From positions 997 to 64,996 of the forward strand of contig JAHJEX010000074.1 in the NCBI GenBank assembly GCA_018825385.1: a stretch of DNA of 64,000 bases, read 5' to 3'. The first letter of the stretch is position 1, and each line of letters begins with the position of its first letter. Source of the DNA: Patescibacteria group bacterium (GTDB taxonomy: Bacteria; Patescibacteriota; Patescibacteriia; UM-FILTER-42-10). Below, in pieces: positions 9,382 to 38,076 of this stretch. A model generated the notes under the pieces. The model was given only the letters and a program-made list of their open reading frames with translations, searched no databases and was not told the DNA's origin. Position numbers and translations under genes: made by a program.

Positions 9382-12141
9382 ATGGCAATTCTAGGGAAAC
9401 TGTTTGGAGATCCAAATAAGAAAAATATTTCAAATCTTGAAGCACAAGTTGAGCAGGTGGAAGGATTTAGAGAGGAATTTGCAAAAATTCCAATTGAAGC
9501 CTTTTCTCAGAAATCAGAAAAATTCAAAAACGAATTGCAATCCGGAAAAACGCTGGACGATATTTTGCCGGAGGCTTTTGCTTTGGCTAGAGAGGCGGCA
9601 AAGCGGGCAATCAATCAATTTCCGTACAAGACTCAGGTGATGGGCGGACTCGTATTACATCAAGGTAAAATTTCGGAAATGAAAACCGGTGAAGGAAAAA
9701 CGCTGGCTGCAACCATGCCTCTATATCTAAATGCGCTAGCAGGAAAGGGAGCTCATCTTGTAACAGTTAACGATTATCTTTCAAAAAGAGATACTGCTTG
9801 GATGGGTAGGATATATAACCTGCTTGGAATCTCTGTCGGATGTGTTCAGCATGATGAAGCATTTTTATTTGATCCCTCTGTTAAATCAGATGTAGACTCT
9901 AAAACCGCAATCCAGGTGGATATAGAGTTACTAAGGCCAGTTAGTCGGAGAGAGGCGTATCAGGCTGATATTACATACGGAACTAATAATGAGTTTGGCT
10001 TTGATTATTTACGGGATAATATGGTTCAAATTCGATCACAGATGGTGCAAAGAGAGCTTAATTATGCGATTGTTGACGAAGTCGATAGCATTCTCATTGA
10101 TGAAGCAAGAACTCCGTTGATTATTTCTGCACCGGATGAGGAGGCTACCGACCAGTATTATAAGTTTGCTCAACTAGTAAATAAGTTGGAAGAAGGCCCT
10201 GACTATAATATTGATGAAAAAATGCGAGCAGCCACTTTGACGGAACAGGGGATTACTAGTGTGGAAAAGTCACTTGGAATAGAAAACCTTTATGCTGAAG
10301 GAGGAATCAGTTTAGTGCATCACATAGAGCAGTCACTAAAAGCAAAGGCGCTATTTAAATTGGACCGTGATTATGTAATCAAGGAGGGTGAAATAGTCAT
10401 CGTTGATGAGTTTACCGGTCGGTTAATGCCGGGTCGACGTTATTCAGAGGGGCTACATCAGGCAATTGAAGCAAAAGAAAATGTTGAAATTAAAAAGGAA
10501 AGTAAAACACTTGCTTCTATAACTTTTCAAAATTACTTTAGAATGTTTAAAAAACTGGCGGGAATGACTGGAACCGCAGCAACTGAAGCGGAGGAATTTT
10601 CGAAAATATATGGCCTTGAAGTTATGGTTATTCCGACTAATAAAACATTGATACGTAATGATAAAACAGATCAAATATTTAAAACCGAGGAGGCTAAATT
10701 TAAAGCGATTGTGAATGAAGTGAAACAGCGTAATGAAAAAGGACAACCGGTGCTTATTGGCACGATTTCTATCGAAAAGAATGAGTTATTGGGACAATTG
10801 CTAGATATGGAAGGAGTTCCCCATAAAATGCTAAACGCTAAGCAACATGAGCAAGAAGCAAATATCATTGCCCAGGCTGGTAAAGATGGGGCTGTTACAG
10901 TTGCAACCAATATGGCAGGAAGAGGTGTCGACATTATCCTTGGTGGCAATCCTCCAGACGAAACAGGGACAGAAAAGGTTCTTTCAGCCGGCGGCTTATT
11001 TGTAATTGGCACAGAGCGACACGAATCACGTCGAATAGACAATCAATTAAGAGGACGATCAGGAAGACAGGGCGATCCTGGTGAAACTCAGTTTTTTGTA
11101 TCCATGGAAGATGATTTGATGCGTATATTTGGTTCTGATCGCATGAAGGGGATTATGGAAAGGTTGGGTATTCCTGACGATATGCCAATCCAAAATAAGA
11201 TGATCAGTCGATCCTTGGAATCTGCCCAAAAGAAAGTTGAAGGAAATAACTTTGATATTCGAAAGCACTTAGTGGAATATGATGACGTTATTAATAAACA
11301 TAGAGAAGTAATTTACAAAAAGCGCCACGATGTATTGAACTCAGAGGCAGGTGAAGAAGGCTATAACGGCGAAATATTGAAAATGATTGAGTCAGAAATT
11401 GAACAAGTAGTTTCATTTCACACTGCTTCTGAGGATGAAGATATATGGGATATTGAAGAGATATATGAGGTTGCTGACACTATTTTTCCTGTCACAATGG
11501 AAGCACGGGTAAAAATGGAGGATATTCATAAGGAGGCAGGAACAAAACTTGAGGATGCAGAAAGCAGAACGCATCTGATAAAATATTTAATTGGTCTGGC
11601 ACACAAGGAATACAAAAATCTTGAAACTAGGGTTGGAGATGAGAATTTAATGCGAAATTTGGAGCGAGTAGTTGTTCTGAGAGTTATTGACCGACTATGG
11701 ATTGATCATTTATCACAAATGGAACACTTGAGAACTGGGATTGGCTTGCGTGGATACGGACAGAGAGATCCACTTATAGAATATAAGAAAGAAGCTTACC
11801 AGCTTTTTACAACAATGATGGCTAGTCTTCAGAATAATGTCGCTCATACTATTTACAAAATTGGTTTAGCAAAAGAAATCGCACCATCAATGATGCAGGC
11901 TAATCAGATAACACAGGCACCTTCGAAGACAATGAATGGTCAACACCAGCATTTTACCGTTCCTATGGAGCAGCCACAGGCGGCAAATGACACATTTTCT
12001 CAAACAAAACCACAGGCATTACCCGGGACAAAGGTTACAGAAGGTGGAAAACTCAAAACAATAGATGGAGAAAAAGTCGGAAGGAATGATCCATGTCCTT
12101 GTGGATCAGGAAAAAAATTTAAAAAGTGTCATGGCCAATAA
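9382..12141 (+). CDS. secA: Preprotein translocase ATPase SecA.
   Basis: 919 aa. DEAD-like motor motifs (MKTGEGKT, DEVDSILIDEARTPLIIS, TNMAGRGVDI). C-terminal zinc finger CPCGSGKKFKKCHG. Confidence 0.95.
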   Translation: MAILGKLFGDPNKKNISNLEAQVEQVEGFREEFAKIPIEAFSQKSEKFKNELQSGKTLDDILPEAFALAREAAKRAINQFPYKTQVMGGLVLHQGKISEMKTGEGKTLAATMPLYLNALAGKGAHLVTVNDYLSKRDTAWMGRIYNLLGISVGCVQHDEAFLFDPSVKSDVDSKTAIQVDIELLRPVSRREAYQADITYGTNNEFGFDYLRDNMVQIRSQMVQRELNYAIVDEVDSILIDEARTPLIISAPDEEATDQYYKFAQLVNKLEEGPDYNIDEKMRAATLTEQGITSVEKSLGIENLYAEGGISLVHHIEQSLKAKALFKLDRDYVIKEGEIVIVDEFTGRLMPGRRYSEGLHQAIEAKENVEIKKESKTLASITFQNYFRMFKKLAGMTGTAATEAEEFSKIYGLEVMVIPTNKTLIRNDKTDQIFKTEEAKFKAIVNEVKQRNEKGQPVLIGTISIEKNELLGQLLDMEGVPHKMLNAKQHEQEANIIAQAGKDGAVTVATNMAGRGVDIILGGNPPDETGTEKVLSAGGLFVIGTERHESRRIDNQLRGRSGRQGDPGETQFFVSMEDDLMRIFGSDRMKGIMERLGIPDDMPIQNKMISRSLESAQKKVEGNNFDIRKHLVEYDDVINKHREVIYKKRHDVLNSEAGEEGYNGEILKMIESEIEQVVSFHTASEDEDIWDIEEIYEVADTIFPVTMEARVKMEDIHKEAGTKLEDAESRTHLIKYLIGLAHKEYKNLETRVGDENLMRNLERVVVLRVIDRLWIDHLSQMEHLRTGIGLRGYGQRDPLIEYKKEAYQLFTTMMASLQNNVAHTIYKIGLAKEIAPSMMQANQITQAPSKTMNGQHQHFTVPMEQPQAANDTFSQTKPQALPGTKVTEGGKLKTIDGEKVGRNDPCPCGSGKKFKKCHGQ

Positions 12142-12976
12142 TCCAAAATACAGAAAAGAAAATATTATTATACAGTCTATTGCAAAGGATGCTTTTAGAA
12201 AATATAAGCAATTATTTAAGGTTGTAACTGTTACAAAAACAAAGAGTGGTCCAGCTGATGTTGTTTCTCAAATGGATCTTGTTATGGACCGACTATTGAA
12301 TAGAAGAATTAAAAAGTACTTTCCAAGTGATGCAATATTTAGCGAAGAAGGATCTGGCGTCCTGGATCAAATGATTGCAGATTATGAAAGAGTATGGGTT
12401 TTGGATCCTATTTGCGGTTCGCTGAATGTTAAGAAGGGGATTAATATTGCCGCAACAAATGTTATTTTGCTCGTTCATGGTGAAATTAAGGCTGCATGGG
12501 TCTTTGATTATCCGAGGGAACGGGTATTGTGGAGTACTGGCGGTCGAAAAGTTTACGACGGCAATAAAAAAATACCAAAACTTGGAAAAAACGAAACAGT
12601 TTGGCATATTGAGGCAAGTAAGGGATACTTACATTTGTTTAGTAGTGGATACCAGAATTTGTACGGAAAATTTATTCAGACAATCGCTACTAGAAAATAC
12701 ACTTATTTTGGTAATTCTGGCAGTTCATTAACTTTTGCGTATGTGGCAACCGGTCAGTTTCAAGGAGCAGTAGCTTTTTATGTAAAGTCATGGGATTTAT
12801 TGGCTGCGTGTTTTCTTGTGGAGCAAAATAGTGGTATCGTAAGGAATTTTGATGGATCAAAGTGGGGGATTAATTCTAAAAGCGTGATCGTCGCTGGTAA
12901 CAGAACAGTATATAATGCCCTGCATGCAGGAATCCAACAATTTGGAAAACAAACTATCAAAAAGCTAGTAAAATAA
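12131..12976 (+). CDS. Inositol monophosphatase / 3'(2'),5'-bisphosphate nucleotidase family protein.
   Basis: FSEEG...WVLDPICGSLN matches the IMPase metal-binding motifs. The start was moved from the track's 12065 to the in-frame Met at 12131, which overlaps only the secA stop codon. Confidence 0.7.
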   Translation: MANNPKYRKENIIIQSIAKDAFRKYKQLFKVVTVTKTKSGPADVVSQMDLVMDRLLNRRIKKYFPSDAIFSEEGSGVLDQMIADYERVWVLDPICGSLNVKKGINIAATNVILLVHGEIKAAWVFDYPRERVLWSTGGRKVYDGNKKIPKLGKNETVWHIEASKGYLHLFSSGYQNLYGKFIQTIATRKYTYFGNSGSSLTFAYVATGQFQGAVAFYVKSWDLLAACFLVEQNSGIVRNFDGSKWGINSKSVIVAGNRTVYNALHAGIQQFGKQTIKKLVK

Positions 12977-12980
12977 CCTG

Positions 12981-14639
12981 CTAGATTTTTTTTACCATAT
13001 ACTCATCCTCAAGCTGATATCCTAGCTTTCGATAATAGTCCCTTACTCCAATTCCGGAAATAACGGCTATTTTTTTGTATCCATTTTTTTTGGATAGTTT
13101 TTCGGCCTCATCCATAAGACGTTTCCCGAAACCTATGTGTTGTGTTCTACCTTTTTTTGTTGATAATGGGATCATTTCTCCGTATGTGTGTAATTCTCGT
13201 AAAAGTGATGCATTCTGTAAGGCACAAATGTAATGATCTTTATTTTTGTCTTTTGGAAATCTTAATCTACAAAAAGCAAAGATAGTAGAATAGTCTTTTG
13301 ACTCGTAGCTCAAAAATATTTCAGTGCCACCAGATGCTTTATATACTCTTTTTACCAGTTTTACATTTTTCTGAGATACCTTCATTCCTCTTGCTTCTCG
13401 ACATCTTATACATCGGCAGAATTTTTCCTCATGTTTAAGCTCATTTTGAATTATCTGACGAATATTTGTAATCTTCATTCCTCCGGAAATGCTTTGTTTC
13501 GGTATATCTCTAAAAAGCCGTGCTATACGAACATATGGCGGGCAAAGTAATTTGATTTCCTTTAGCAGTGCTTTTAGCTTGTTGTCTGAATAGGGCTTAT
13601 ATATTCCGTTTTTCCATAAGTCATATAGCTTAGAGTATTTAGAAACTATGGTCGGATAAATTTTTATTTGATCAGGCTGGAAGTCAGGGTTTGTGAAAAT
13701 CTGCTTAAACATCTCAACATCTTCCTTCGTGGTCGCCTTATATAGTCCTGGCATGAGATGATATGTAATCTTGAATCCCGCATCCTTATACAATTGAGTA
13801 GCCCTAATTGTAGCTTCGACTTTATGACCGCGCTTATTAAAATCCAAAATGTGATCATGAATACTTTGTACACCCATCTCAACACGAGTTGCACCCAACT
13901 CACGCATTAGGTGAACCTCTTTTTTACTTACAAAATCCGGTCTAGTCTCAAGCGTTATACCCACAACCCTATCTTTTGCTGTTTCGTTAAGCTTTTGAGC
14001 TCGTTTCAACTTAGCCATTATTTGATTTCTTCTTTTTTTCGTTTCTAATATACTCTTTACCTCTTTTATTTCATTCACATCAGCTCTGCTTCTTCTACTG
14101 CTTGAAATCCCATCATTAAATGCGTCAAAACATCTCTTTAGATACCAAATCTGGTAAAGAGGATTGTGATAAGACCAAGTCCCACCCATTACAATTAATT
14201 CACACTTGTCAGTTGGATGGCCATTTTCATAATAGGCTCTCAATCTTGTCCTTACCATTTTATAGGGATCAAATTTCTGTGCCATGGACCTCATTACAGC
14301 AGGTTGTGTCGAGAGATAGCTTTTTGGCATGTCATTTTCTGTAGGGCAGTAAATACATTTACCCGGGCAAGGAAGCGATTTTGTGTGTACGCCTATTGAA
14401 GCAATCCCAGAAAGTGTTCTAATGTCACGTATCCTTAAAGCGCGAACAAAATTATTGTTCTTCTTAGTTATTCCCTTATTAACCAATTGCCGGTAATGCG
14501 CTAAAATAAGATTATTGGTATAAAAGGGGATTTGATGTTTCTTAGAAAACTGTCTTTTAAATCGATAAAGATCCCGCCTTCCCTTCAGATCGGCTTTAAT
14601 GGCTTCGGTCACAAATTGTGTAATAATTTTTTGAGGCAT
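12981..14639 (-). CDS. elp3: Elp3-like radical SAM + GNAT enzyme (tRNA wobble-uridine carboxymethyl-type modification family).
   Basis: Radical SAM cysteine cluster CPGKCIYCP. ELIVMGGTW. C-terminal GNAT/HAT block VISGIGVRDYYRKLGYQLEDEYMVKKI, close to the Elp3 C-terminus. 552 aa. Confidence 0.8.
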   Translation of the reverse strand: MPQKIITQFVTEAIKADLKGRRDLYRFKRQFSKKHQIPFYTNNLILAHYRQLVNKGITKKNNNFVRALRIRDIRTLSGIASIGVHTKSLPCPGKCIYCPTENDMPKSYLSTQPAVMRSMAQKFDPYKMVRTRLRAYYENGHPTDKCELIVMGGTWSYHNPLYQIWYLKRCFDAFNDGISSSRRSRADVNEIKEVKSILETKKRRNQIMAKLKRAQKLNETAKDRVVGITLETRPDFVSKKEVHLMRELGATRVEMGVQSIHDHILDFNKRGHKVEATIRATQLYKDAGFKITYHLMPGLYKATTKEDVEMFKQIFTNPDFQPDQIKIYPTIVSKYSKLYDLWKNGIYKPYSDNKLKALLKEIKLLCPPYVRIARLFRDIPKQSISGGMKITNIRQIIQNELKHEEKFCRCIRCREARGMKVSQKNVKLVKRVYKASGGTEIFLSYESKDYSTIFAFCRLRFPKDKNKDHYICALQNASLLRELHTYGEMIPLSTKKGRTQHIGFGKRLMDEAEKLSKKNGYKKIAVISGIGVRDYYRKLGYQLEDEYMVKKI

Positions 14640-15383
14640 ATGAATAAGAATACAGCAGATTCAATATTAGAAAAAGTAGCGTCCGACTATAATAACATAG
14701 CGGGCCATTTTTCCCAAACTCGGTATAGAGATTGGGCTGAGTTTTCTGATTTTGAAAAGTTTCTAAAAACAGGTGTATCGGTTCTTGATGTGGGGTGCGG
14801 TAATGGGAGGCTTCTGCATTTCCTGAACAGATACAGAGTTAAGTATGTTGGTATTGATGTGTCATCAAAATTACTAAAGATTGCCAAGCAATTAGTGGAT
14901 GAAAAAATATGCACTTCTATAACAAGCCATAGCTTCATTGAAGCTTCTGCTGAAAAGCTCCCATTTGCTGATAGAACATTCGATATTGCATTTGCAATTG
15001 CGAGTCTATATCATATTCCATCAAAAGAGCTTCGCCAACGCTCAATAAATGAAATATCACGTGTTTTAAAACCAGGCGGTGTGTTTATTATGACTTATTG
15101 GAATATGTGGGAACGATCCAGAAGGACATTGATATACAACAACATTACTGACAAACTTGTCGGCAAATCCAATCTGGATTTCTTTGATGCTAATAAACCT
15201 TGGAAAAATCCAAAAGGTCAGGTGCTTGCTGAGAGGTTTTGCCATGCCTTTACCTTAAGGGAGATTGAGAGACTGTCGAAAAAAAGTAGTTTCAGAACTG
15301 TCGATAAGTATTATATGAAAAAGGGACAAAAATCCAATTCAAAGTATGGCTTTAACGGTGTATATATAGGAAAGAAGTATTGA
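14640..15383 (+). CDS. Class I SAM-dependent methyltransferase (Methyltransf_11), Trm9/ALKBH8-MTase-like.
   Basis: YNNIAGHFSQTRYRDW, SAM motif I VLDVGCGNGRLL, post-I acidic D, AIASLYHIPS...ISRVLKPGG, TYWNMWERSRR. I recall these blocks resembling yeast Trm9. The start was set to the Met at 14640, directly abutting the divergent elp3 start. Confidence 0.65.
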   Translation: MNKNTADSILEKVASDYNNIAGHFSQTRYRDWAEFSDFEKFLKTGVSVLDVGCGNGRLLHFLNRYRVKYVGIDVSSKLLKIAKQLVDEKICTSITSHSFIEASAEKLPFADRTFDIAFAIASLYHIPSKELRQRSINEISRVLKPGGVFIMTYWNMWERSRRTLIYNNITDKLVGKSNLDFFDANKPWKNPKGQVLAERFCHAFTLREIERLSKKSSFRTVDKYYMKKGQKSNSKYGFNGVYIGKKY

Positions 15384-15562: not shown

Positions 15563-16990
15563 ATGCAAAATCACAGAGTAAAAATTAAAATTTTGGTGTT
15601 GGCAGTACTGGCAAGTACTGTTTTTTTGATACCTAAAATCGTACAAGCAACAGAGTCACGTGCACCAGAACTACGTATTTTTAATTCCAATAGCTATTCG
15701 GTCGACAAGGCATTTATGGTTTTTGATGAAAACTTTCAGGGTGGCGCATCCGTCGCGATAGGTGACCTTCAGGGAAATGGAACAAATGAAATAGTTGTTG
15801 CACCGGGTCCTGGAGGAGGTCCACACATTAAAATTTTTAAATCAGATGGAACTTTTATTTCAAGCTTTTTTGCATATACCTCTGGCTACAGGAAAGGTGT
15901 GAATATTGCAGCGGGAGATTTGGACGGAGATGGCAAGGATGAAATTATTGTTAGCACTCGTTATGGAGCAACGCCTCATGTCAGAGTTTTTGATGGCAAT
16001 GGTATTCCAAAGTTCACATGGGGATTTTTTGCATACCAAGAAAATTTCAGAGGAGGTGTAAATATTGCAGCCTGTGATGTTGACGGTGATGGAGAGAAAG
16101 AAATAGTAACAGGTGCGGGGCCGGGCGGTGGACCACATGCTCGTGTATTTGATAAAGATGGCACTTATGCGGGTCTGGATTATTTTCCGTTTGCATCAGA
16201 TTTTCGAGGAGGAATTTCTGTAACCTGTGGCAATGTAGATGGCGGTGCAGAAGAGGAGGTAATTTTTAGTGTTCAGACCTCAGATGAAGCATGGGTAAAG
16301 GTTTACAAAACAAATTCTGAGCAGACAGTCCTTGGAATGTTTCGTGCATTTCCAGAATCATTTCGTGGTGGCATAAATATAGCGAGTGGCGATGTTGATC
16401 GTGATGGGCTTGATGAGATAATTGTTGCAGCTAATACTGGCGGTGGCTCACATGTAAGATTTTTTGAGGCCTATGGTTTTCCACATCCCGATTCAATTTT
16501 TGCCTATGAAGATGAGTTCAGAGGTGGAGTCTTGGTAACAGCAGGCGATGCAAATAATGATTCTTATGATGAAGTTATCGTATCTCCAAATAGAAGATCT
16601 ACAGAAGGAAGAACTGATTTGGATAAATATATTGAAATAGATATTTCTGACCAACAATTAAACTACTATGAAAATGGGTATCTTGTTGACTCTACTCAGG
16701 TGTCTACAGGAAAGTGGTCAATGCCGACACCGTTAGGAACATTTAGCATTCAAAATAAGCATCCTCGAGCTTATTCTGCCACTTACAATTTGTACATGCC
16801 TTTCTGGATGCAGTTTGAGTCAAGGGGATATGGACTACATGAACTCCCAGAGTGGCCTAGTGGCTACAAGGAGGGTCAGGACCACTTAGGTATAAGAGTT
16901 TCACATGGTTGTGTCCGTTTAGGTGTCGGTCCAGCAGAGAAACTATATAGCTGGGCAGAAGTTGGCACTACTGTGATTGTAAAAGATTAA
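15563..16990 (+). CDS. Secreted FG-GAP/VCBS-repeat beta-propeller protein with C-terminal L,D-transpeptidase (YkuD) domain.
   Basis: Signal peptide. At least six repeats of the type GDLDGDGKDEIIV...GPGGGPHVRVF (Ca-binding DxDxDG). C-terminal LDT catalytic motif SHGCVRL. Confidence 0.75.
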   Translation: MQNHRVKIKILVLAVLASTVFLIPKIVQATESRAPELRIFNSNSYSVDKAFMVFDENFQGGASVAIGDLQGNGTNEIVVAPGPGGGPHIKIFKSDGTFISSFFAYTSGYRKGVNIAAGDLDGDGKDEIIVSTRYGATPHVRVFDGNGIPKFTWGFFAYQENFRGGVNIAACDVDGDGEKEIVTGAGPGGGPHARVFDKDGTYAGLDYFPFASDFRGGISVTCGNVDGGAEEEVIFSVQTSDEAWVKVYKTNSEQTVLGMFRAFPESFRGGINIASGDVDRDGLDEIIVAANTGGGSHVRFFEAYGFPHPDSIFAYEDEFRGGVLVTAGDANNDSYDEVIVSPNRRSTEGRTDLDKYIEIDISDQQLNYYENGYLVDSTQVSTGKWSMPTPLGTFSIQNKHPRAYSATYNLYMPFWMQFESRGYGLHELPEWPSGYKEGQDHLGIRVSHGCVRLGVGPAEKLYSWAEVGTTVIVKD

Positions 16991-17051: not shown

Positions 17052-17351
17052 ATGCCAGGTGAACCAAAACCAGAACAAGAGTCTCCCCTTGATATTCCAG
17101 GACTTGTTTCAGAATTAGATGCGATTACTGCTCAATGGGGTGTCGAAGATCTAATGGAAAGAAATGAGGTTGCACTAAGGCAACGCGAATCTAAAGTTGC
17201 CACTGTAGTTGATAAACTTCTTAATTCTGACGTGACCGGTGAAAAAGAGCCAGCACTTCTAGAATCTGTAATAGGTGCAATTGGAATGTTCGATGGTCAG
17301 AGTACTACATTTAAACTAAAGGAGTTAAAAGCAAAATTAGAAGGGAAATAG
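17052..17351 (+). CDS. Small hypothetical protein (99 aa), paralog of the next gene.
   Basis: No signal peptide. Shares an N-terminal block (GEPKPEQ.../GEFKPDQ..., LVSELDAITAQW/LVSKIDQINDHW) and a C-terminal block (LLNSD...PELLESV.../LLNSD...PELLASV..., KAKLE) with the 17584 ORF. Confidence 0.5.
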   Translation: MPGEPKPEQESPLDIPGLVSELDAITAQWGVEDLMERNEVALRQRESKVATVVDKLLNSDVTGEKEPALLESVIGAIGMFDGQSTTFKLKELKAKLEGK

Positions 17352-17583: not shown

Positions 17584-17937
17584 ATGACTGGAGAATTTAA
17601 ACCAGATCAAGGCGAACTCAATGTAGATGTACCTGCATTAGTTTCTAAAATCGATCAAATAAATGACCATTGGAAAGCTAAAGATGAAGGTACCGCGGAA
17701 ATTCCAAATGATTTACATGAGCAAGAACGGGAAATAGGTGCTCAATTGGAGCAGTTACTAAATTCAGATATTAGCGCTGAATCAAATCCAGAATTATTAG
17801 CATCTGTAAAAGCCGGTCTAATGTTTTTCGATAATGCAGATATTGCGAAAATCTTGATGAGAGTCGAAGCAAAGCTGGAGAGCAGGGATGTTGATGAAGA
17901 AGCTCTTGAAAAGCTTGGGGAGCTACCTTTACTATAG
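17584..17937 (+). CDS. Small hypothetical protein (117 aa), paralog of 17052..17351.
   Basis: Shares conserved blocks with the preceding small protein (see above). Acidic C-terminus. Confidence 0.5.
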   Translation: MTGEFKPDQGELNVDVPALVSKIDQINDHWKAKDEGTAEIPNDLHEQEREIGAQLEQLLNSDISAESNPELLASVKAGLMFFDNADIAKILMRVEAKLESRDVDEEALEKLGELPLL

Positions 17938-18087: not shown

Positions 18088-19497
18088 ATGAAGAAACTTA
18101 TTATATTTGCAGTTGCAATTTTGCTTGCATTTCCACTATCTGTCTTTGCATATACAAAGACGCGTGCACCGGAGATTCGTGTGTTTGATTCAGATGGAGA
18201 GATGAAAAGAAATCTGACTGTGTACCCTGAAGATTTTTATGGAGGGGTTTCCGTTGCTTCGTGTGATATAGATGGAAACGGGAAAGATGAAATTATTGTG
18301 GGCGCAGGCCCGGGCGGTGGACCAAACGTAAAAATTGTCTGGCCCTATTCACTGAAGATAACCGGATTTCTGGCTTATGCAGAAACTTTCAGAAAAGGAG
18401 TAACAGTTGCCTGTGGCGATCTGAATGGTGATGGTGAGATAGAAATAGTTACAGGTTCAGGATCAGGAGGTGGACCACACATCAGAATATTTGATACCGA
18501 GGGAAATCAAAAGTTTACTCCGGGATTCTTTGCGTTTGGTGAAAATATGCGAGGTGGTGTAAACGTAGCTGTGGGTGATGTGGATGGGGATGGGAAAGAT
18601 GATATTGTCGCAGCACCTGGTTCATCCGGAGGATCGCATGTTAGGGTATTTAACTTTCGTGGTGATTATAAGGGGATAGATTTCTTTCCGTTTCGAGAGG
18701 GCGACAGGGGAGGAGTTTCGTTAGCTGTGGGAAACTTTGATGGTGGGCCGGAAGATGAGATAGTAGTAGCAGTAGAAAAGTTTGGCAAAGCTTGGACAAA
18801 GATCTATAAATTTAATGAATCAAGAACTATCCTTGGTGAATTTGATGCCTACCCCGATTACTTTGAAGGTGGAATTAGGGTAGGTGCGGGTGACGTGGAT
18901 AATGATGGATTTGATGAGGTGATTGTCGCTCCGACAAGAGCAGGTGGTCCACATGTTAGAATGTTTGAAGCACACGGTGAATTGATTGATAATTCCATAT
19001 TTGCTTATGAAGAAGATTTTCGAGGGGGCGTGAATCTTGCAAGTGGTGATATTACCGGAAATGGACAAGATGACATTATTACTGCCCCTGCTGGATGGTT
19101 CAGCGAAAACAGGCCTGATCATTATAAATATATTGAGGTTAACCTAACGGAACAGAAGCTCTATGCTTATGAGAATGATAAATTAGTGGATTCTTTTCTT
19201 ATCTCATCAGGAATTAAGGGAAAATATGATACGCCGATAGGAGAATACAGTGTGTTTCTGAAACGTGAATCCACTGATATGAGCTGGTTCTATGGTCCAG
19301 ATGATCCGGATAACTATGACTTAGAGGATGTGCCTCATGTTCTATCATTTTCAGGCGCATATACGATTCATGGAACTTATTGGCACAATAATTTTGGATA
19401 TCGAATGAGCCATGGGTGCGTAAATATGTCACGTGAGGATTCTGCCTGGCTTTATCAATGGGCAAATCTAGGAATTCCAGTTATTGTTCACGACTGA
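18088..19497 (+). CDS. Secreted FG-GAP-repeat beta-propeller + L,D-transpeptidase domain protein (paralog of 15563..16990).
   Basis: Signal peptide. The same repeat architecture (GDLNGDGEIEIV, GDVDGDGKDDIV). C-terminal SHGCVNM LDT motif. Confidence 0.75.
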   Translation: MKKLIIFAVAILLAFPLSVFAYTKTRAPEIRVFDSDGEMKRNLTVYPEDFYGGVSVASCDIDGNGKDEIIVGAGPGGGPNVKIVWPYSLKITGFLAYAETFRKGVTVACGDLNGDGEIEIVTGSGSGGGPHIRIFDTEGNQKFTPGFFAFGENMRGGVNVAVGDVDGDGKDDIVAAPGSSGGSHVRVFNFRGDYKGIDFFPFREGDRGGVSLAVGNFDGGPEDEIVVAVEKFGKAWTKIYKFNESRTILGEFDAYPDYFEGGIRVGAGDVDNDGFDEVIVAPTRAGGPHVRMFEAHGELIDNSIFAYEEDFRGGVNLASGDITGNGQDDIITAPAGWFSENRPDHYKYIEVNLTEQKLYAYENDKLVDSFLISSGIKGKYDTPIGEYSVFLKRESTDMSWFYGPDDPDNYDLEDVPHVLSFSGAYTIHGTYWHNNFGYRMSHGCVNMSREDSAWLYQWANLGIPVIVHD

Positions 19498-22276: not shown

Positions 22277-23431
22277 ATGAGCGACCAAAGTTCAATTCTA
22301 GATAAAGTTATTAACTCAAAACAAGAGGCAGAAATTGAGGGATTCAGTCCTAGCGAGACCGTTTCTTTATTGTTGAAGTATCTAACAAACAAGGAAGAAG
22401 ACGTTCTAAGACGTCGATTTGGGTTAAACGGTCAAGCAAAAGAGACGTTGGAGGCTATTGGGAAGGCATATAACGTTACTCGTGAGAGGATTCGGCAGAT
22501 AGAAAGCTCTGCGATCAAAAAAATTAAGGGATTAAGAGAATTTGGAGGAGTATCTACAGATTTTGAGCACACCATTTCAAATGTACTTGCTCGCAACGGC
22601 GGGATTATGGATGAAAATTCGCTTTTGCGGGAGTTACTAAATTTTGCCTCAGACAATCCGCTAAATAATAATTGTGCGGTATTTATTTTGGAGGAACTAG
22701 TTTCTAAAAAAATAGTCCGTGTGCCAGCATCGACTAGCGTTGAAAAGTCATGGAGCCTTCCCCATGTTTCAATGGATTTTGTTAATGAAACAATTGGACA
22801 ATTGATTCGAATTCTTGAGAATGATGACAAGCCACTAAAGCTTGATGAGCTTTTAGAAAAGTTTCACCAAACTGACTATTATGCAGGCAAGAATGAAGCT
22901 CTGACAGATGAAGGTAATCATTCTTACATAAATTTAAGTAAAAAGATTGATAATAATCCATTTGATGAATATGGATTAGCAAAGTGGGGATCAATCAACC
23001 CTAAGCGGATGAAAGATAAAATATACCTGGTTTTGAAGAAAGAAAAAAAGCCATTACACTTTAATAAAATTACTGATCTAATAAACAAGGTTAAGTTTGA
23101 TAGACGAAAGGCATATCCACCAACTGTTCATAACGAATTAATTCTGAATAATGATTTTGTCCTAGTTGGTAGAGGAATATATGCGCTTAAAGAATGGGGC
23201 TATAAACCTGGCGTTGTTTCGGATGTGCTGATAAAAATCCTCGAAAAAGCTGATAATCCATTATCAAGAGACGAGCTAGTCAAACGCGTGCTTGAACAGA
23301 GGGTTGTTAGGAAAAATACGATTCATTTGGCGCTTACGGATAAAACCAAGTTTACGAAACTTCCTGATAAACGCTATTCCCTAAATAGCGAAACGCCTGA
23401 TCAGGAAGTTGTAGAGCCAACATCTATTTAA
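22277..23431 (+). CDS. Sigma-70 region 4 (HTH) domain protein with C-terminal HARE-HTH-like winged helix. Putative DNA-binding regulator.
   Basis: Residues ~30-85, EEDVLRRRFGLNGQAKETLEAIGKAYNVTRERIRQIESSAIKKIKG, closely match RpoD region 4.2. The C-terminal block KIYLVLKKEKKPLHFNKITDLI...FVLVGRGIYALKEWGY matches the HARE-HTH / RpoE-delta N-terminal pattern. Confidence 0.6.
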   Translation: MSDQSSILDKVINSKQEAEIEGFSPSETVSLLLKYLTNKEEDVLRRRFGLNGQAKETLEAIGKAYNVTRERIRQIESSAIKKIKGLREFGGVSTDFEHTISNVLARNGGIMDENSLLRELLNFASDNPLNNNCAVFILEELVSKKIVRVPASTSVEKSWSLPHVSMDFVNETIGQLIRILENDDKPLKLDELLEKFHQTDYYAGKNEALTDEGNHSYINLSKKIDNNPFDEYGLAKWGSINPKRMKDKIYLVLKKEKKPLHFNKITDLINKVKFDRRKAYPPTVHNELILNNDFVLVGRGIYALKEWGYKPGVVSDVLIKILEKADNPLSRDELVKRVLEQRVVRKNTIHLALTDKTKFTKLPDKRYSLNSETPDQEVVEPTSI

Positions 23432-23440
23432 TATTCAAAA

Positions 23441-24883
23441 ATGGAAATTTCTATAGATCTTACATCATTGGTTGAACGTGGTGTACAGAATCCGCTTGCA
23501 CTTGCATGGTGGATTTTTGTAAAAGGTGGCTGGGTCGTTTTTTTGATAATTTTTATGGTGGGATTGTATTTTGCGAAGCTTGAGCATGCAAGGAGAAAAT
23601 ACCGAGAGACCGCAGAGCCAGTTTTACTAGCGCTGGATATTCCAAAGGAAAACGAGCAAAGTCTGAAAGCCATTGAACAAATATTTGCGCAGTTACATGC
23701 AAATGAATCCCATGCCAATAAGCTACAGCGATTTTGGCAGGGAAAGGTCCAGAGTCGGTATTCCCTTGAATTGGTAAGCATTGATGGATATATTCAGTAT
23801 TTGATCAGGTCTGATAAAGATAATAGAGATTTAGTTGAAGCAGCAATATATGCTCAATACCCAGATGCGGAGATTACAGAGGTTGGCGACTACACTGACT
23901 CTGTGCCAAATCAATTTCCAAACAAGGATTATGATTTGTGGGGAGCAGAGTTTGTGCTAGCAAAAAATGACGCATATCCCATTCGTACTTATCGTAATTT
24001 TGAGCATACTTTAACTCAAAAATTTGCTGATCCAATGGCTTCGCTACTTGAGGCTCTATCGCGTCTACAGCCTGGGGAACAGACGTGGTTACAGATAATA
24101 ATTACACCTACAGGGTCCGGATGGACCAAAAATGCGGATCGCCTGGTAAAAAAACTAATAGGAGAAAAAACTGCGAGAAAAAAGGGAATGCTTTCTCCGC
24201 TTGCTGACTCTGCAAAAGGTTTTGGCAATGAAGCGGTAAATCAATTGTTGGGGGGAAGTACAGGCTCAACAGAAAAAAGCAGTTCCGAAAAGGAGGAGCA
24301 GAACAAAATAAAATTTCTAACTGCTGGTGCTCAAAGTGTTGTCGAGGCAATTGAAGAAAAAATGGCAAAAATTGCATTTCGAACAAAAATTCGTTTGGTC
24401 TATATTGCAAAGAAGGAAATCTTTGATAAAAATCGAGGCGTGAGACCTGTAAGAGGAGCTATCCTACAGTATAACACTCAAAATCTCAATGCATTTGAAA
24501 CTCATAAAAAAACTAAAACAAAGGCTGATTACATAAGAGTTGATAAGCGAATTGCCCATAAGCAGAGAAAAATTTTACGAGCATATAAAATGCGAGCAAA
24601 TCACTTAGGGATTGGTGAAGGATTCATTATGAATATTGAGGAATTAGCAAGTATATTTCACTTTCCAATTGCAGAAATCACAGTTCCACCTGTTCAAAGA
24701 ACTGAAGTGCGTAAAGGAGGAGCGCCAACGACATTACCGCGTGAATTTATGTCCACATCCGGGATACCTCTCCAAACTCCAGGTGCAAAAATTGCAACTG
24801 ATCAGCCTATGCCAAGAGCAGGTATACCTGAAAATCTTCCTATAGAGATTAATAATACTGACGAATCAAAAGATGGTGAATAG
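23441..24883 (+). CDS. Bitopic membrane protein (one N-terminal TM, large soluble domain), function unknown. Candidate membrane partner of the downstream ATPase.
   Basis: Single ~25-aa hydrophobic segment near the N-terminus. No recognisable catalytic motif. Begins 10 nt after the upstream gene and overlaps the downstream ATPase by 11 nt. Confidence 0.5.
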   Translation: MEISIDLTSLVERGVQNPLALAWWIFVKGGWVVFLIIFMVGLYFAKLEHARRKYRETAEPVLLALDIPKENEQSLKAIEQIFAQLHANESHANKLQRFWQGKVQSRYSLELVSIDGYIQYLIRSDKDNRDLVEAAIYAQYPDAEITEVGDYTDSVPNQFPNKDYDLWGAEFVLAKNDAYPIRTYRNFEHTLTQKFADPMASLLEALSRLQPGEQTWLQIIITPTGSGWTKNADRLVKKLIGEKTARKKGMLSPLADSAKGFGNEAVNQLLGGSTGSTEKSSSEKEEQNKIKFLTAGAQSVVEAIEEKMAKIAFRTKIRLVYIAKKEIFDKNRGVRPVRGAILQYNTQNLNAFETHKKTKTKADYIRVDKRIAHKQRKILRAYKMRANHLGIGEGFIMNIEELASIFHFPIAEITVPPVQRTEVRKGGAPTTLPREFMSTSGIPLQTPGAKIATDQPMPRAGIPENLPIEINNTDESKDGE

Positions 24884-26603
24884 TAATGAAATAACAGTTT
24901 TCGCGGAAACTAATTTTCGTAACAAGAAAGTCAGATTTGGCATCAAAGAAGATGACCGAAGACGACATATATATTTGATTGGGAAAACTGGTGTAGGTAA
25001 ATCAAACTGTATCGAAAATATGGTGATTTCAGATATACAAAGAGGTCGTGGCGTTGCTCTTGTGGATCCGCACGGAGAATCAGTTGAAAAAGTAGTTAAG
25101 TATATCCCATCAAATAGAGTTAATGATGTTGTTTACTTTAATCCGTCTGATACAGAGCATCCTATTGCGTTTAATATACTTGAGGAGGTTAATCCTCAAT
25201 ATAAAAATTTGATTGCATCTGGGTTAGTTGGCGTGTTTAAAAAGATATGGGCGGACTCGTGGGGACCTAGGCTTGAGTACATTCTGATGAATACTATCTT
25301 AGCATTGCTAGAGAATCCTGGAAGCACTCTTTTAGGTATTACAAGATTATTGGTTGATAAGACTTACCGCAAAAAAATTGTTTCTAACCTCACTGACCCG
25401 ATTGTTAAGGCATTTTGGATTGATGAGTATGCAAACTATAATGAACGATTCAGAACGGAGGCAATTTCTCCAATACAGAATAAGGTTGGTCAGTTTCTTT
25501 CTAGCGCAATAATTAGGAATATAGTTGGACAGCCAAAAAGCACGATTGACATGAGAAACATAATGGATAAGAAGAAAATTCTTCTGATGAACCTTGCAAA
25601 AGGAAGGATTGGGGAAGAAAATTCTGCTCTTCTTGGCGCAATGATGATCACTAAGCTTCAATTAGCAGCAATGAGCCGAGTGGATGTCGCAGAGGAAGAT
25701 CGAGAGGATTTCTATTTATACGTTGATGAGTTTCAAAATTTTTCTACAGAAAGTTTTGCAAATATATTGTCTGAGGCGAGAAAATATAGATTGAATCTTA
25801 CTATTGCTCACCAATATATTGAGCAATTAGGTGACGTAGTAAAAGCAGCTGTGTTTGGTAATGTTGGTACCATTGTTTGTTTCAGGGTCGGCGCAGAAGA
25901 CGCTGAATTCCTCGAAAAAGAATTTGAGCCGTATTTTCTTCTGAATGATTTAGTAAATCTTCCAAAATATAATGTTTATATGAAACTGATGATTGATGGT
26001 ATTGCCTCAGCGCCATTCAGTGCAACAATTCTTCCGCCAATCCAGGGAGAAACTGGCAACCTGGAAAAAATTATTACATCATCACGTGAAAGATATGCTA
26101 GACCATTAAAAGTTGTTGAAGAGAAAATACTCAGATGGAGTGGCGTTGAGGAGATGTACAGAGGTGACGCTAATGAAGAAACTGTAACGAAGCCAGCTCC
26201 ACAGTACAAAAAGCCAGTTAGCAGTAGCAATAAAATCACTGAAAACAATGAACGTGTACCTAACGAAAGTAAATCAAAACCAAAATCTGTGGTAAAGATT
26301 TCGGAAGGTCCGGTCGAGCCTGAGATTGATCTGCCACCGACGGAAATCCGCCTAAATGATGCACTACAACAAGGTCCTGTTTCTTTTAGTGAATCAAGAA
26401 AAAGAAATCCAGTATCAACTCAAAATAGTAACAGAAAGCAAGGGGATAGAAACAGAAAGAAAAAACGTCGCAAACCGAAACCTCATCATGCTAAAGAACA
26501 AATTCCACGGTTAGAGCCAAAATCAGATAATGATCAAACCCTACAGCAACAATCTAACAATTATATCCTAGAGCAAGGAAAAAGTGTAAAGTTTGATAAG
26601 TAG
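24873..26603 (+). CDS. TraD/TrwB/VirD4-family (type IV coupling-protein-like, FtsK/HerA superfamily) P-loop ATPase, with no TM anchor and a basic C-terminal tail.
   Basis: Walker A LIGKTGVGKS and Walker B LYVDEFQNF. Overall ~400-aa NTPase core. No N-terminal TM helices. The last ~150 aa are K/R/S/P/Q-rich (NRKQGDRNRKKKRRKPKPHH). Confidence 0.7.
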   Translation: MVNSNEITVFAETNFRNKKVRFGIKEDDRRRHIYLIGKTGVGKSNCIENMVISDIQRGRGVALVDPHGESVEKVVKYIPSNRVNDVVYFNPSDTEHPIAFNILEEVNPQYKNLIASGLVGVFKKIWADSWGPRLEYILMNTILALLENPGSTLLGITRLLVDKTYRKKIVSNLTDPIVKAFWIDEYANYNERFRTEAISPIQNKVGQFLSSAIIRNIVGQPKSTIDMRNIMDKKKILLMNLAKGRIGEENSALLGAMMITKLQLAAMSRVDVAEEDREDFYLYVDEFQNFSTESFANILSEARKYRLNLTIAHQYIEQLGDVVKAAVFGNVGTIVCFRVGAEDAEFLEKEFEPYFLLNDLVNLPKYNVYMKLMIDGIASAPFSATILPPIQGETGNLEKIITSSRERYARPLKVVEEKILRWSGVEEMYRGDANEETVTKPAPQYKKPVSSSNKITENNERVPNESKSKPKSVVKISEGPVEPEIDLPPTEIRLNDALQQGPVSFSESRKRNPVSTQNSNRKQGDRNRKKKRRKPKPHHAKEQIPRLEPKSDNDQTLQQQSNNYILEQGKSVKFDK

Positions 26604-26695: not shown

Positions 26696-27796
26696 ATGAA
26701 AACAAGGAAAAAAATTTTTGTCGCAATGAGTGGTGGCGTCGATTCCTCAGTAGCAGCCTACTTATTAAAAAAGCAAGGACATGATGTTGTTGGTGTCTTT
26801 ATGAAAAACTGGACAGAGACTCTAAATAGCGAAAAAAACGGCTTTACTAAGGACTCAGAGCTTTGTCCTTGGGTTAATGACCAGGAAGACATGAGAATGG
26901 TTTGCAATAAACTACGAATTCCATTTTATACTTTCGATTTTGAGAAGGAATATAAGGATAGAGTAATTGAGTATTTTTATAGCAGCTATGAAAAGGGGAT
27001 CACTCCAAATCCTGATATAATGTGTAATAAGGAGATAAAGTTTAATTTATTTTTGAAAAAGTGCATTTTACTTAGAGCGGATTTTATAGCAACCGGACAC
27101 TATGCTCAGATAAGGAAGATTAGCACTGCCGGAGAGCAAAAATATGAGTTATTAAAAGGCAAAGACAAGACCAAGGATCAATCATACTTCCTCTGTACCC
27201 TCACACAAGCCCAGCTGGCAAAAACGTTGTTTCCTGTTGGGAAATATGAAAAAATTCATATTCGATCAATTGCTAAAAGAATTAAATTGCCAACACACGA
27301 CAAGAAGGACAGCCAGGGGATTTGTTTTATTGGTGAAGTTGATTTACGCGACTTTCTTAAAAAGCGTCTAAAGGAAAAACCGGGGGAAATTGTTGCCACT
27401 ACCGGTGAAACAATTGGTAATCATATTGGACTAGCGTTCTATACAATTGGACAGAGAAAAGGAATAAATATCGGTGGTGGAATCCCTTACTACGTCGTAG
27501 GCAAAGAGACTAATAGTAATCAGCTAATTGTTGCACGGGGAAGTCATGATCCAAATCTGTTTAGCAAAACACTATCTGCGAGTCAGATTCATTGGGTTGG
27601 CGACACACCAAAATTTCCACTGAAGTGCGCGGCAAAAATTAGATACCGTCAATCTGACCAGAAAGTTACTATTAATCTGCTTACTAAAAATGTAATCAGC
27701 GCTGTTTTTGAGGAACCTCAAAGAGCTATTACCCCAGGTCAATCGATTGTGTTATATAAGGGCGCAGTTCTGTTAGGCAGCGCAGTGATTACTTGA
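26696..27796 (+). CDS. mnmA: tRNA-specific 2-thiouridylase.
   Basis: PP-loop AMSGGVDSSVAA and the C-terminal MnmA fold. The start was taken at the third Met of the track ORF (MKTRKKIFVAMSGG). Confidence 0.85.
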   Translation: MKTRKKIFVAMSGGVDSSVAAYLLKKQGHDVVGVFMKNWTETLNSEKNGFTKDSELCPWVNDQEDMRMVCNKLRIPFYTFDFEKEYKDRVIEYFYSSYEKGITPNPDIMCNKEIKFNLFLKKCILLRADFIATGHYAQIRKISTAGEQKYELLKGKDKTKDQSYFLCTLTQAQLAKTLFPVGKYEKIHIRSIAKRIKLPTHDKKDSQGICFIGEVDLRDFLKKRLKEKPGEIVATTGETIGNHIGLAFYTIGQRKGINIGGGIPYYVVGKETNSNQLIVARGSHDPNLFSKTLSASQIHWVGDTPKFPLKCAAKIRYRQSDQKVTINLLTKNVISAVFEEPQRAITPGQSIVLYKGAVLLGSAVIT

Positions 27797-36365: not shown

Positions 36366-37076
36366 ATGAACAATGAAGCTATGATCAGTATAATAGTTCC
36401 AGCTTATCAGCACGGGAATTCAATAAAAGAGTGTTTAGATGCTCTATATGCTCAAACTTATGATGATTTTGAAGTCATTGTTGTTAATGATGGCTCAACG
36501 GATCACACAGCAGCGATTTTGCAGGCCTATGAGCATCCTGTACGGATTATTTATCAAGAGAATTCAGGTGCAAATATTGCAAGGAATCGAGGTTTTCGGG
36601 AAGCACAAGGCAAATATCTTCTGTTCTGTGATGCAGATGTTGTTGCCAATCCTGAAATGCTGATAAAAATGAAAACTGCCCTTGATAATGATCAGAAAGC
36701 AGCTTATTCTTATTGTGATTTTATGTGGGGAATTAAAGCTTTTAAACTTTTTCCATTTAGTTCAGATGAATTACGGAATAAGAATTATATTCATACAACA
36801 TCGCTTATTAGGAAAATATACTTTACGGGTTTTGATGAGTCAATAAAGCGATTGCAAGATTGGGATTTGTGGCTAACTATGATGGAAGCAGGGCATACTG
36901 GAACACATATTCCTGAAACACTTTTTACTGTTAAACCAAGAAAAAGTGGAATGTCAGGATGGTTACCTTCACTTGTATACAAAATTCCTTGGCAAAAAAT
37001 CGGAATAAAAATTAAGCGTCTTGAGAGTTTTAGAATTGCTGAGGAGGTTATTAAGAAAAAGCATTCACTGTTTTAG
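36366..37076 (+). CDS. Family 2 glycosyltransferase (GT-A).
   Basis: ISIIVPAYQ...VIVVNDGSTD and a DAD motif (CDADV). Confidence 0.75.
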   Translation: MNNEAMISIIVPAYQHGNSIKECLDALYAQTYDDFEVIVVNDGSTDHTAAILQAYEHPVRIIYQENSGANIARNRGFREAQGKYLLFCDADVVANPEMLIKMKTALDNDQKAAYSYCDFMWGIKAFKLFPFSSDELRNKNYIHTTSLIRKIYFTGFDESIKRLQDWDLWLTMMEAGHTGTHIPETLFTVKPRKSGMSGWLPSLVYKIPWQKIGIKIKRLESFRIAEEVIKKKHSLF

Positions 37077-38039
37077 GAATCGGTTAATCATGCTTTCCAC
37101 TTCGAGTGCATTCTGCGCCTTCATTAATTCAATGCGCAGTTTTTTTGAATCAGTAAAGTCCGATACATAGGATGAATAGAACTTTCTAATATTGTAGAAA
37201 TTTTTTATCCCTTTGAATGTTTTTTCAAAAAGATGAGAATGCCTAATCAGAAGTTGAAGGCGATCATTATATGTTATCTGATCCGCGCTTTTTCCTGAGA
37301 AAAACCACGGATCATTCATAGCCGCTCTGCCAATCATAACACCATCAACACCAAATTCCTGTGCTTTATCCTTGGCATCCTGAATGCTTTTAACGTCGCC
37401 ATTGCCGATAAAAATCGTTTTCGGACTACTTGCTTTAACAATAGCACCGATACTTTTGATTATATCCCAGTGAGCAGGCACTTTTGACTTCTCTTTTTGC
37501 GTTCTTCCATGGATTATTAATGCTGCCGGTTTCATTTCTAATATCTTTGGAATCCACGACTTAGAAACATCCTTATTGTAACCAATTCTGGTCTTTACTG
37601 AAACAGCCATTTCACCAGCTCCATCTACAGTCGCAGTTATGATTTCCTTAGCTAATAACGGAGTCTTTATGAGGGCTGCGCCGGCACCTTGTTTTTCAAT
37701 TGCTTTGAACGGGCACCCCATATTAATATCAATACCATCAAATCCAAGTTTTTCTATTAGCTTAGCGCTTTTGTAGAAATTAGCAGGGTTGCTTCCAAAA
37801 ACCTGGGCAACAATCGGTTTCTCATTTTCATGGAATTTCAAATCATAGAGCAAACGCTTCCTGCCTGCAGAACACATTCCATCAGCTGAAACAAATTCAG
37901 TAAACATAACATCTGGACCACCACATTGTATTACCATTTGTCTATATGGAAAATCAGTTACGTCATCCATTGGTGCCATTACAAAAAATGGTCTTTTTAA
38001 GCTTTTCCAAAAGTTTCTAGTATTCTTACTATTTCGCAT
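37065..38039 (-). CDS. dus: tRNA-dihydrouridine synthase.
   Basis: FVMAPMDDVTDFPYRQ, IDINMGCP and the FMN-binding TIM-barrel pattern. The start was set to the Met at 38039 (MRNSKNT...) rather than 38099. Confidence 0.8.
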   Translation of the reverse strand: MRNSKNTRNFWKSLKRPFFVMAPMDDVTDFPYRQMVIQCGGPDVMFTEFVSADGMCSAGRKRLLYDLKFHENEKPIVAQVFGSNPANFYKSAKLIEKLGFDGIDINMGCPFKAIEKQGAGAALIKTPLLAKEIITATVDGAGEMAVSVKTRIGYNKDVSKSWIPKILEMKPAALIIHGRTQKEKSKVPAHWDIIKSIGAIVKASSPKTIFIGNGDVKSIQDAKDKAQEFGVDGVMIGRAAMNDPWFFSGKSADQITYNDRLQLLIRHSHLFEKTFKGIKNFYNIRKFYSSYVSDFTDSKKLRIELMKAQNALEVESMINRFLKQ

Positions 38040-38076
38040 ATATTGATTATAGCAGATCAAAATAAAAAGGGAGCAT

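Follow-up and report, generated by a model that had tools for sequence, protein, structure and literature searches.

Does a bacterium of the Patescibacteria (the candidate phyla radiation, CPR) encode, in two adjoining genes, a route to modified tRNA wobble uridine of the kind that archaea and eukaryotes use? The question is raised by 64,000 nt of contig JAHJEX010000074.1 (hereafter the window; low GC, 37.6%), part of a Patescibacteria genome of about 1 Mb, in which a minus-strand gene for a radical S-adenosylmethionine (SAM) protein of the Elp3 type stands head to head with a plus-strand gene for a class I SAM-dependent methyltransferase that resembles Trm9 and ALKBH8. The two genes probably form an Elongator-type (archaeal/eukaryotic) module for modification of the wobble uridine, U34: both products have orthologs in the known pathway, the residues of the Trm9 substrate pocket are conserved, the pairing of the genes is kept across several phyla, and the architecture of the junction between them recurs. 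The coordinates of all features discussed are collected in Table 1.

Elp3 and a methyltransferase of the Trm9 family

The identification of the minus-strand product as Elp3, originally proposed from the motif CPGKCIYC (residues 91-98) and the block GIGVRDYY (residues 529-536), is firm. Both motifs are present, and the NCBIfam model TIGR01211 (ELP3) matches residues 10-552 over model positions 3-522 of 522 with 556.2 bits, its curated cut-off being 350. The Pfam models Radical_SAM and Radical_SAM_C both score above threshold. The best relatives in the PDB are the archaeal Elp3 of M. infernus (6iaz, 1e-125) and the Elp3 of Dehalococcoides mccartyi (5l7j, 8.5e-109), followed by those of mouse, human and yeast. 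Across an alignment of 16 Elp3 sequences, the three cysteines of the radical-SAM motif (C91, C95, C98) are invariant, and Q500, H501, G503 and G505, which belong to the acetyl-CoA motif QHxGxG, are conserved in 90% or more. The C-terminus aligns residue by residue with that of M. infernus Elp3 through residue 551; stand-alone Pfam GNAT models fall slightly under threshold here (21.3 versus 23.6). The protein also carries the CRCIRC cysteines typical of prokaryotic Elp3. Its first 80 residues are basic (18 K/R versus 4 D/E) and in this resemble the tRNA-binding N-terminal extension of archaeal Elp3, likewise basic, which Dehalococcoides Elp3 lacks (PMC6367351).

The methyltransferase was compared with Trm9 by means of an alignment of 43 members of its own family, to which all residue frequencies below refer, and an alignment and hidden Markov model (HMM) of 20 named fungal Trm9 proteins. 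The blocks in which the original prediction had seen a likeness to Trm9/ALKBH8 (HFSQTRYRDW, VLDVGCGNGRLL, IASLYHIPS...RVLKPGG and TYWNMWERSRR) are all present, and the profiles bear that likeness out. The two alignments matched in hhalign with probability 100 and an E value of 3.7e-43 over 205 columns (28% identity), which begin at the YxxIAxHFSxTR motif and reach the C-terminal Asn; reciprocally, among the 93 window open reading frames (ORFs) of at least 80 aa, the fungal Trm9 HMM had a single match, this methyltransferase (1.8e-28). When the family profile was searched against the PDB, Yarrowia Trm9 (5cm2_Z) came top (2.1e-25) and was matched over nearly the whole chain, the runner-up being matched over the Rossmann core only; with a profile of the C-terminal 100 positions, which hold none of the SAM-binding core, Trm9 was the sole PDB match with E<0.1 among 177,635 sequences. 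Methyltransferases adjacent to Elp3 scored a median of 88.8 bits with the fungal HMM, and Rossmann-core-only methyltransferases that lack both the signature motif and a neighbouring Elp3 did not exceed 47 bits; a further three proteins that neither match the motif nor adjoin Elp3 (L043 and L051, both archaeal, and L072) scored 70-82 bits. Clustered at 50% identity, the family (E <=1e-30) falls into at least 1,801 groups.

The residues point the same way. The N-terminal signature YNNIAGHFSQTRYRDW aligns with the fungal consensus VYEQIASHFSxTRYKPW; in it Y17 and R28 are found in 43/43 family members and T27 in 39/43, the equivalents in Saccharomyces cerevisiae Trm9 including Y18 and R29. Every full-length family locus has the signature, and none of the Rossmann-core-only methyltransferases does. 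Mutagenesis of yeast Trm9 has identified eight residues needed for activity, R29, D72, H116, W145, W168, R241, Y243 and N271 (PMC4678810), of which seven are kept in the window protein: R28 (43/43), D73 (43/43), H125 (38/43), W154 (43/43), W188 (38/43), R199 (42/43) and N239 (40/43). On this combination of profiles and residues, the methyltransferase is a member of the Trm9 family.

The protein also matches the broad Pfam models Methyltransf_11, Methyltransf_25 and Methyltransf_31, and the names that Pfam and NCBIfam offer for it are generic or UbiE-like, all under the family cut-offs. An identity as UbiE/MenG was rejected (TIGR01934, 66.5 bits versus a cut-off of 158; PRK00216 models, 39-66 bits versus cut-offs of 216-378), and in the choice between grouping with UbiE and grouping with Trm9 the protein thus falls on the Trm9 side. 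Automatic annotation of some family members at JGI reads 'TRM9' or 'alkB family protein 8'; NCBI names them 'class I SAM-dependent methyltransferase'.

Conservation of the pair and of its start-codon junction

The pairing was examined from both sides. Loci centred on the methyltransferase were taken from one genome per species, sorted with the signature pattern F[SDNA]x[TS]R, and counted as assessable where a full-length, motif-bearing methyltransferase was accompanied by enough upstream sequence; loci centred on Elp3 were drawn from metagenomes. Of the 53 assessable methyltransferase-centred loci, 50 have Elp3 in their flank, nearly always immediately upstream and on the opposite strand, and the methyltransferase is present in 62 of the 72 assessable Elp3-centred loci (61 divergent, 1 convergent). 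Near Rossmann-core-only methyltransferases without the F[SDNA]x[TS]R pattern, the same scan never found Elp3. The pairing is therefore kept in related genomes, whichever gene is taken as the starting point and across phyla. The metagenome scan yielded at least 598 confirmed relatives of Elp3, so that the earlier description of bacterial Elp3 homologs as sporadic understates their number.

Carriers of the pair, named here as in the sequence records, include among the Patescibacteria the Kuenen-, Portnoy-, Komeili-, Falkow-, Peregrini-, Gracili- and Dojkabacteria, WWE3 and Paceibacterota; among the Chloroflexota the Anaerolineae, Caldilineaceae, Aggregatilineales and Limnocylindria; and in other phyla the Acidobacteriota (including the order Multivoradales of the Thermoanaerobaculia) and Fermentibacteria. 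Beyond the two genes themselves the neighbourhoods differ between loci, and a conserved third gene (Trm112, thiolase), sought by clustering all ORFs of about 160 loci, was not found, the next families occurring in 23 loci at most. Pairwise distances of Elp3 and of the methyltransferase are correlated (r = 0.845, n = 84, Mantel 0 of 2000). The two genes are inherited as a unit; the correlation shows co-inheritance, which vertical descent and joint transfer could both produce. A tandem arrangement of the two genes occurs in a locus of Gracilibacteria (L018) and in one of Crenarchaeota (L038). In a metagenome-assembled genome (MAG) of Aggregatilineales (L065), a 574-aa ORF (5953-7677, plus strand) fuses the Trm9-like domain to a Methyltransf_4 domain (TrmB, tRNA m7G46-type; PF02390, 138.8 bits), with Elp3 about 1.5 kb upstream on the opposite strand; this fusion to a TrmB domain points to a tRNA substrate.

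Other regularities of these loci are confined to parts of the sample. In one Patescibacteria sublineage of about 20 loci (for example L125:2009-2926, L147:1921-2789 and L017:2643-3491), two same-strand genes come after the methyltransferase in a lineage-specific synteny; one encodes a SLOG cluster-4 protein (PF18306, about 185 aa), and the other is an ORF (about 88 aa) whose likeness to EF-Tu domain 2 is weak. A gene for serine hydroxymethyltransferase adjoins Elp3 in 13 loci, among them several Elp3 loci with no Trm9-like neighbour; it lies downstream of Elp3 in L131, L136, L138, L165 and L102, and is accompanied by FolD in L006 (2106-3392). Several MAGs labelled 'uncultured Gammaproteobacteria' or 'Saccharibacteria' (L009, L025, L033, L034, L044 and L050; binchicken, SRP co-assemblies) hold a pair of the CPR type, with 33-41% identity to the window protein for the Trm9-like enzyme and 45-48% for Elp3, and their taxonomic labels may be unreliable.

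The junction of the two genes can be read directly from the window as CATATG: as had been predicted, the two ATG codons abut at 14639/14640, with zero intergenic bases. Both starts are backed by homologues. The initial methionine of the methyltransferase is invariant and falls in the same alignment column in 43 homologues, and the window Elp3 aligns from residue 1 with two relatives that likewise have no gap between the genes (L001, 78% identity; L088, 99% identity). A census of the offsets of in-frame Elp3 ATG codons relative to the methyltransferase ATG was made over 109 related opposite-strand pairs. The sequence CATG, in which the elp3 ATG lies at offset -2 and the central AT is common to both codons, occurs in 25 of these pairs, and the arrangement of the window (offset 0, CATATG) in 10; no other offset from -40 to +80 was seen more than five times. 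Start codons thus overlap or abut in 35/109 pairs, about one third, in lineages with proteins merely 35-45% identical, and because offsets 0 and -2 dominate, the abutment exceeds chance.

The initiation region of either gene would therefore sit within, or at the edge of, the first codons of its partner. Since the spacing is zero, the promoters of both genes would lie inside the partner gene, as the original prediction supposed, unless the mRNAs are leaderless. Matches to a sigma-70-like promoter near the junction (plus strand, 14479-14507; minus strand, 14717-14689) are at chance level, three being found where 2.0 +/- 1.2 are expected from shuffled sequence, and promoter and terminator scans of the surroundings of the junction and of the Elp3 3' end gave chance-level matches throughout. 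Elp3 opposes the prevailing direction of genes: of the 48 window ORFs with 150 aa or more, 46 read along the plus strand, and both exceptions encode enzymes of tRNA modification (Elp3 and a DusB-like dihydrouridine synthase).

A proposed pathway and its alternatives

In the pathway proposed for this pair, the stand-alone Elp3 would use SAM-derived radical chemistry and acetyl-CoA to place a carboxymethyl group on C5 of U34, giving 5-carboxymethyluridine (cm5U). The divergently encoded Trm9-family methyltransferase would then use SAM to esterify the carboxylate, giving 5-methoxycarbonylmethyluridine (mcm5U), probably without a Trm112 activator, and bacterial MnmA could thiolate the same base to give the 2-thio derivative, mcm5s2U. 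Such a scheme would be a hybrid, with an archaeal/eukaryotic branch for C5 and a bacterial branch for thiolation. The mnmA gene that the original prediction named in this window is present with a score well above the model's cut-off; it lies 11 kb from the pair and outside it, and the s2 group would likely come from its product. An NCBIfam scan of 20 larger ORFs of the window, which covers 64 kb of the genome, revealed neither mnmE nor mnmG, and the window contains no tRNA genes.

The omission of Trm112 from this scheme requires comment, as Trm112 is required by the Trm9 of eukaryotes and of Haloferax volcanii (PMC4678810, PMC6144793). Inspection by eye of the small ORFs of the window, of which no profile scan was made, revealed none that resembled Trm112. 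When the residues of the Yarrowia Trm112 interface were mapped onto the family through hhalign, four of nine positions were found to be polar or charged rather than hydrophobic or Yarrowia-like. Residues V59 and F78 of Yarrowia Trm9, which are hydrophobic and shielded by Trm112, are replaced in the family mostly by K/S/R and by D/K/E/N, respectively; E100 and R115 are replaced mostly by K/S/N and by S/E/N; F116 and D117 are retained. The diverged interface positions and the want of a conserved third neighbour suggest that the window enzyme may work without Trm112.

Several observations weigh against the reading of the pair as an Elp3/Trm9 module. The equivalent of yeast Y243 is C201 in the window protein, and the family as a whole has C in 16, Y in 13 and L in 7 of its 43 members at this position; the yeast Y243A mutant retains about 10% of activity (PMC4678810). 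A single-sequence phmmer search of the PDB ranked Trm9 only eighth, and a Foldseek search of the PDB with the AlphaFold2 (AF2) model of the methyltransferase (pLDDT 95.7) ranked it fourth among many generic class I methyltransferases, with the best target TM-score (0.82). Judged from such a model, fold alone cannot decide membership of the family, and the placement therefore rests on the profiles and residues described above. There are also 10 full-flank Elp3 loci without the methyltransferase and three methyltransferase loci without Elp3; the genome could encode a Trm112 homologue outside the window; and a 2020 review reported no direct evidence for xcm5U derivatives in bacteria that carry Elp3 (PMC7663514).

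Three other explanations of the pair were considered. The methyltransferase may be derived from Trm9 and yet act on something else, such as a different side chain that depends on Elp3, a different position in tRNA or a carboxylate outside tRNA, in which case mcm5U would not be the end product. The variability of position 201, an identity to fungal Trm9 of merely 28-31%, the diverged Trm112 interface and the lack of any report of bacterial mcm5U in the literature found would all agree with such a shift of substrate, which is nonetheless judged unlikely: the residues proposed to hold the carboxylate and uracil of cm5U (yeast R29, H116, W145, R241 and N271) are conserved in 38-43 of the 43 family members, the gene stays beside Elp3 across phyla, and the TrmB fusion of L065 indicates tRNA. 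It is considerably less probable that the pair is a variant of the bacterial enzymes MnmL and MnmM (YtqA and YtqB), which finish the MnmEG-dependent pathway to mnm5(s2)U. In Gram-positive bacteria the genes for these enzymes frequently adjoin or are fused (bioRxiv 10.64898/2026.05.18.725915), and the window Elp3 does match the MnmL/YtqA model TIGR01212 in part, but with 78.4 bits, far under the cut-off of 180, and over residues 221-398 only, whereas the Elp3 model matches at full length and includes the acetyltransferase domain, which MnmL lacks; the methyltransferase, for its part, matches Trm9 over its whole length, and mnmE and mnmG were not seen among the window ORFs scanned.

There is very little to recommend the remaining explanation, that the extreme compaction of a CPR genome has placed Elp3 beside a generic UbiE-like enzyme of the Methyltransf_11 type and that the adjacency has no meaning. 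The generic or UbiE-like names under cut-off, and the NCBI label of the relatives, are what it would lead one to expect; however, the pairing persists in Chloroflexota, Acidobacteriota and CPR within different neighbourhoods, Rossmann-core-only methyltransferases without the motif never occur near Elp3, and the UbiE/MenG score is less than half of what that model demands. An Elp3/Trm9 module thus remains the probable reading of the locus.

A wider proposition may be put forward tentatively, as one that would sooner fail in one of its parts than hold in all of them. According to it, several phyla (much of the Patescibacteria, parts of the Chloroflexota, the Thermoanaerobaculia of the Acidobacteriota, and the Fermentibacteria) might make mcm5(s2)U34 by means of Elp3 and Trm9, instead of or beside MnmEG, with a Trm112-independent methyltransferase, with thiolation by MnmA, and from head-to-head genes whose start codons overlap or abut and whose promoters and initiation regions, lying in each other's coding sequence, would couple or mutually limit their expression.

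The pathway itself is already known, and some family members have been named TRM9 automatically; what had gone unreported is the host range. Relatives of the Trm112-dependent methyltransferases, Trm9 included, have been reviewed as undetectable in bacteria (PMC5372719), and bacterial Elp3 as confined to Dehalococcoides, with evidence of its product lacking (PMC7663514). The present data run counter to these reviews, a Trm9-family enzyme being a fixed neighbour of Elp3 in many bacterial lineages. In the literature searched, Elp3-Trm9 clustering is mentioned only for Sulfolobus and no paper joins Trm9 with CPR bacteria, and searches for a bacterial Elp3-Trm9 pair or for CPR wobble modification returned nothing relevant. 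The predicted independence from Trm112 and the overlapping divergent start codons are possibly distinctive traits. If the proposed chemistry is true, the 'eukaryotic/archaeal' mcm5U pathway would span three domains, there would be a concrete product to seek when the role of bacterial Elp3 is asked, codon decoding in CPR bacteria may differ from that of model bacteria, and biochemistry would gain a naturally Trm112-independent Trm9 together with small stand-alone Elp3 enzymes. The recurrent overlap of divergent start codons offers a compact natural case for the study of interference between face-to-face promoters.

Other features of the window and comparison with known systems

The gene of the inositol-monophosphatase family (PF00459) that converges on the Elp3 stop codon with a gap of 4 nt probably has its true start further downstream than its longest ORF suggests, because that ORF shares 77 nt with the 3' end of secA. 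On the other side of the pair, a paralogous pair of FG-GAP-repeat proteins (about 470 aa), both ending in a YkuD L,D-transpeptidase domain, encloses two small acidic ORFs that are paralogs of each other and have no Pfam match; the FG-GAP/YkuD pair is also found 3' of the methyltransferase in the relative L001. Three ORFs lie between secF and mnmA. The first (384 aa) resembles sigma-70 region 4 at its N-terminus only, the second (480 aa) has no family match, and the third (576 aa) has weak matches to coupling ATPases of the VirD4/TraD type. Two tRNA ligases of the window, for alanine and for proline, are short, and the latter, matched by the bacterial model in two stretches, apparently lacks the inserted editing domain.

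Table 1. Positions in the window of the Elp3/Trm9-like pair, its sequence motifs and the other genes discussed
Feature	Coordinates	Strand	Basis or remark
elp3, radical-SAM and GNAT/lysine acetyltransferase (KAT) homologue of tRNA uridine(34) carboxymethyl synthase, 552 aa	12981..14639	minus	TIGR01211, Pfam, PDB relatives
Radical-SAM [4Fe-4S] cysteine motif CPGKCIYC, Elp3 residues 91-98	14346..14369	minus	C91, C95, C98 invariant
C-terminal KAT/GNAT domain, Elp3 residues ~420-552	12984..13382	minus	QHIGFG (500-505), GIGVRDYY (529-536)
trm9-like, class I SAM-dependent methyltransferase, Trm9/ALKBH8 family, 247 aa	14640..15383	plus	hhalign, fungal Trm9 HMM, PDB, AF2 model
N-terminal Trm9 signature, residues 17-32, with R28 (yeast Trm9 R29)	14688..14735	plus	alignment
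SAM-binding motif I VLDVGCGNGR, residues 48-57	14781..14810	plus	D50, G52, C53, G54 invariant
Substrate-pocket residues H125, W154, W188, R199, N239; C201 in place of yeast Y243	15012..15356	plus	mapped to yeast Trm9
Head-to-head start-codon junction CATATG	14637..14642	both	read from sequence; elp3 ATG (as CAT) 14637..14639, methyltransferase ATG 14640..14642
mnmA, tRNA 2-thiouridine(34) synthase	26696..27796 (ORF from 26654)	plus	NCBIfam NF001138, 451 bits, cut-off 284
Inositol-monophosphatase-family gene	12065..12976	plus	PF00459
FG-GAP-repeat/YkuD protein	15563..16990
Small acidic ORF	17052..17351
Small acidic ORF	17584..17937
FG-GAP-repeat/YkuD protein	18088..19497
Three ORFs between secF and mnmA	22277..26603
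Alanine-tRNA ligase, 587 aa	27829..29592		PRK01584 type, 867 bits
DusB-like dihydrouridine synthase	37065..38099	minus	215 bits, under cut-off 293
Proline-tRNA ligase, 409 aa	61895..63124		bacterial model

Among the systems to which the pair can be compared, MnmL/MnmM of the Bacilli likewise consists of a radical-SAM enzyme, related to the radical-SAM domain of Elp3, encoded beside or fused with a SAM-dependent methyltransferase, and both systems act, or in the present case are predicted to act, on the C5 side chain of U34. MnmL differs in having no acetyltransferase domain and in working downstream of MnmEG, and its model is matched by the window protein only at the low score given above; MnmM N-methylates nm5U, whereas the Trm9-like enzyme of the window is a predicted O-methylase of a carboxylate. 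The structurally studied Elp3 of Dehalococcoides mccartyi is bacterial, stand-alone and built of the same domains, but lacks the long basic N-terminus of the window Elp3 (PMC6367351). A methyltransferase partner is undiscussed in the Dehalococcoides Elp3 literature searched, which did not include the original structure paper.

Eukaryotic Elongator, acting with Trm9 or ALKBH8 and Trm112 to form mcm5(s2)U34, employs enzymes of the same two families, presumed to act in the same order. Its Elp3, like that of the window, combines radical-SAM and KAT domains, and its Trm9 shares with the window methyltransferase the YxxIAxHFSxTR motif and seven of the eight essential yeast residues. In contrast to the eukaryotic system, the window Elp3 stands alone, with no Elp1, Elp2 or Elp4-6, and has the prokaryote-type CRCIRC cysteines; no Trm112 is seen nearby, and positions that would contact it are polar or charged in the window family; the methyltransferase has neither the AlkB nor the RRM domain of ALKBH8; thiolation would fall to bacterial MnmA, the partner in view, rather than to Ncs6/Urm1; and the two genes are physically joined.

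Closer in organization are the archaeal enzymes. In Haloferax volcanii (HVO_2888 and HVO_1032), Elp3 is likewise stand-alone, mcm5U has been demonstrated, and Trm9 needs Trm112 in vivo (PMC6144793), which sets it apart from the enzyme predicted here, as does the bacterial nature of the present host; the best PDB match of the window Elp3 is archaeal. Clustering of the Elp3 and Trm9 genes has been noted for Sulfolobus solfataricus (PMC6144793, PMC5372719), and the Crenarchaeota locus L038, in which the same methyltransferase family stands beside Elp3, matches that clustering. The archaeal genes of L038 are in tandem, whereas the bacterial pairs are overwhelmingly divergent, often with overlapping start codons.

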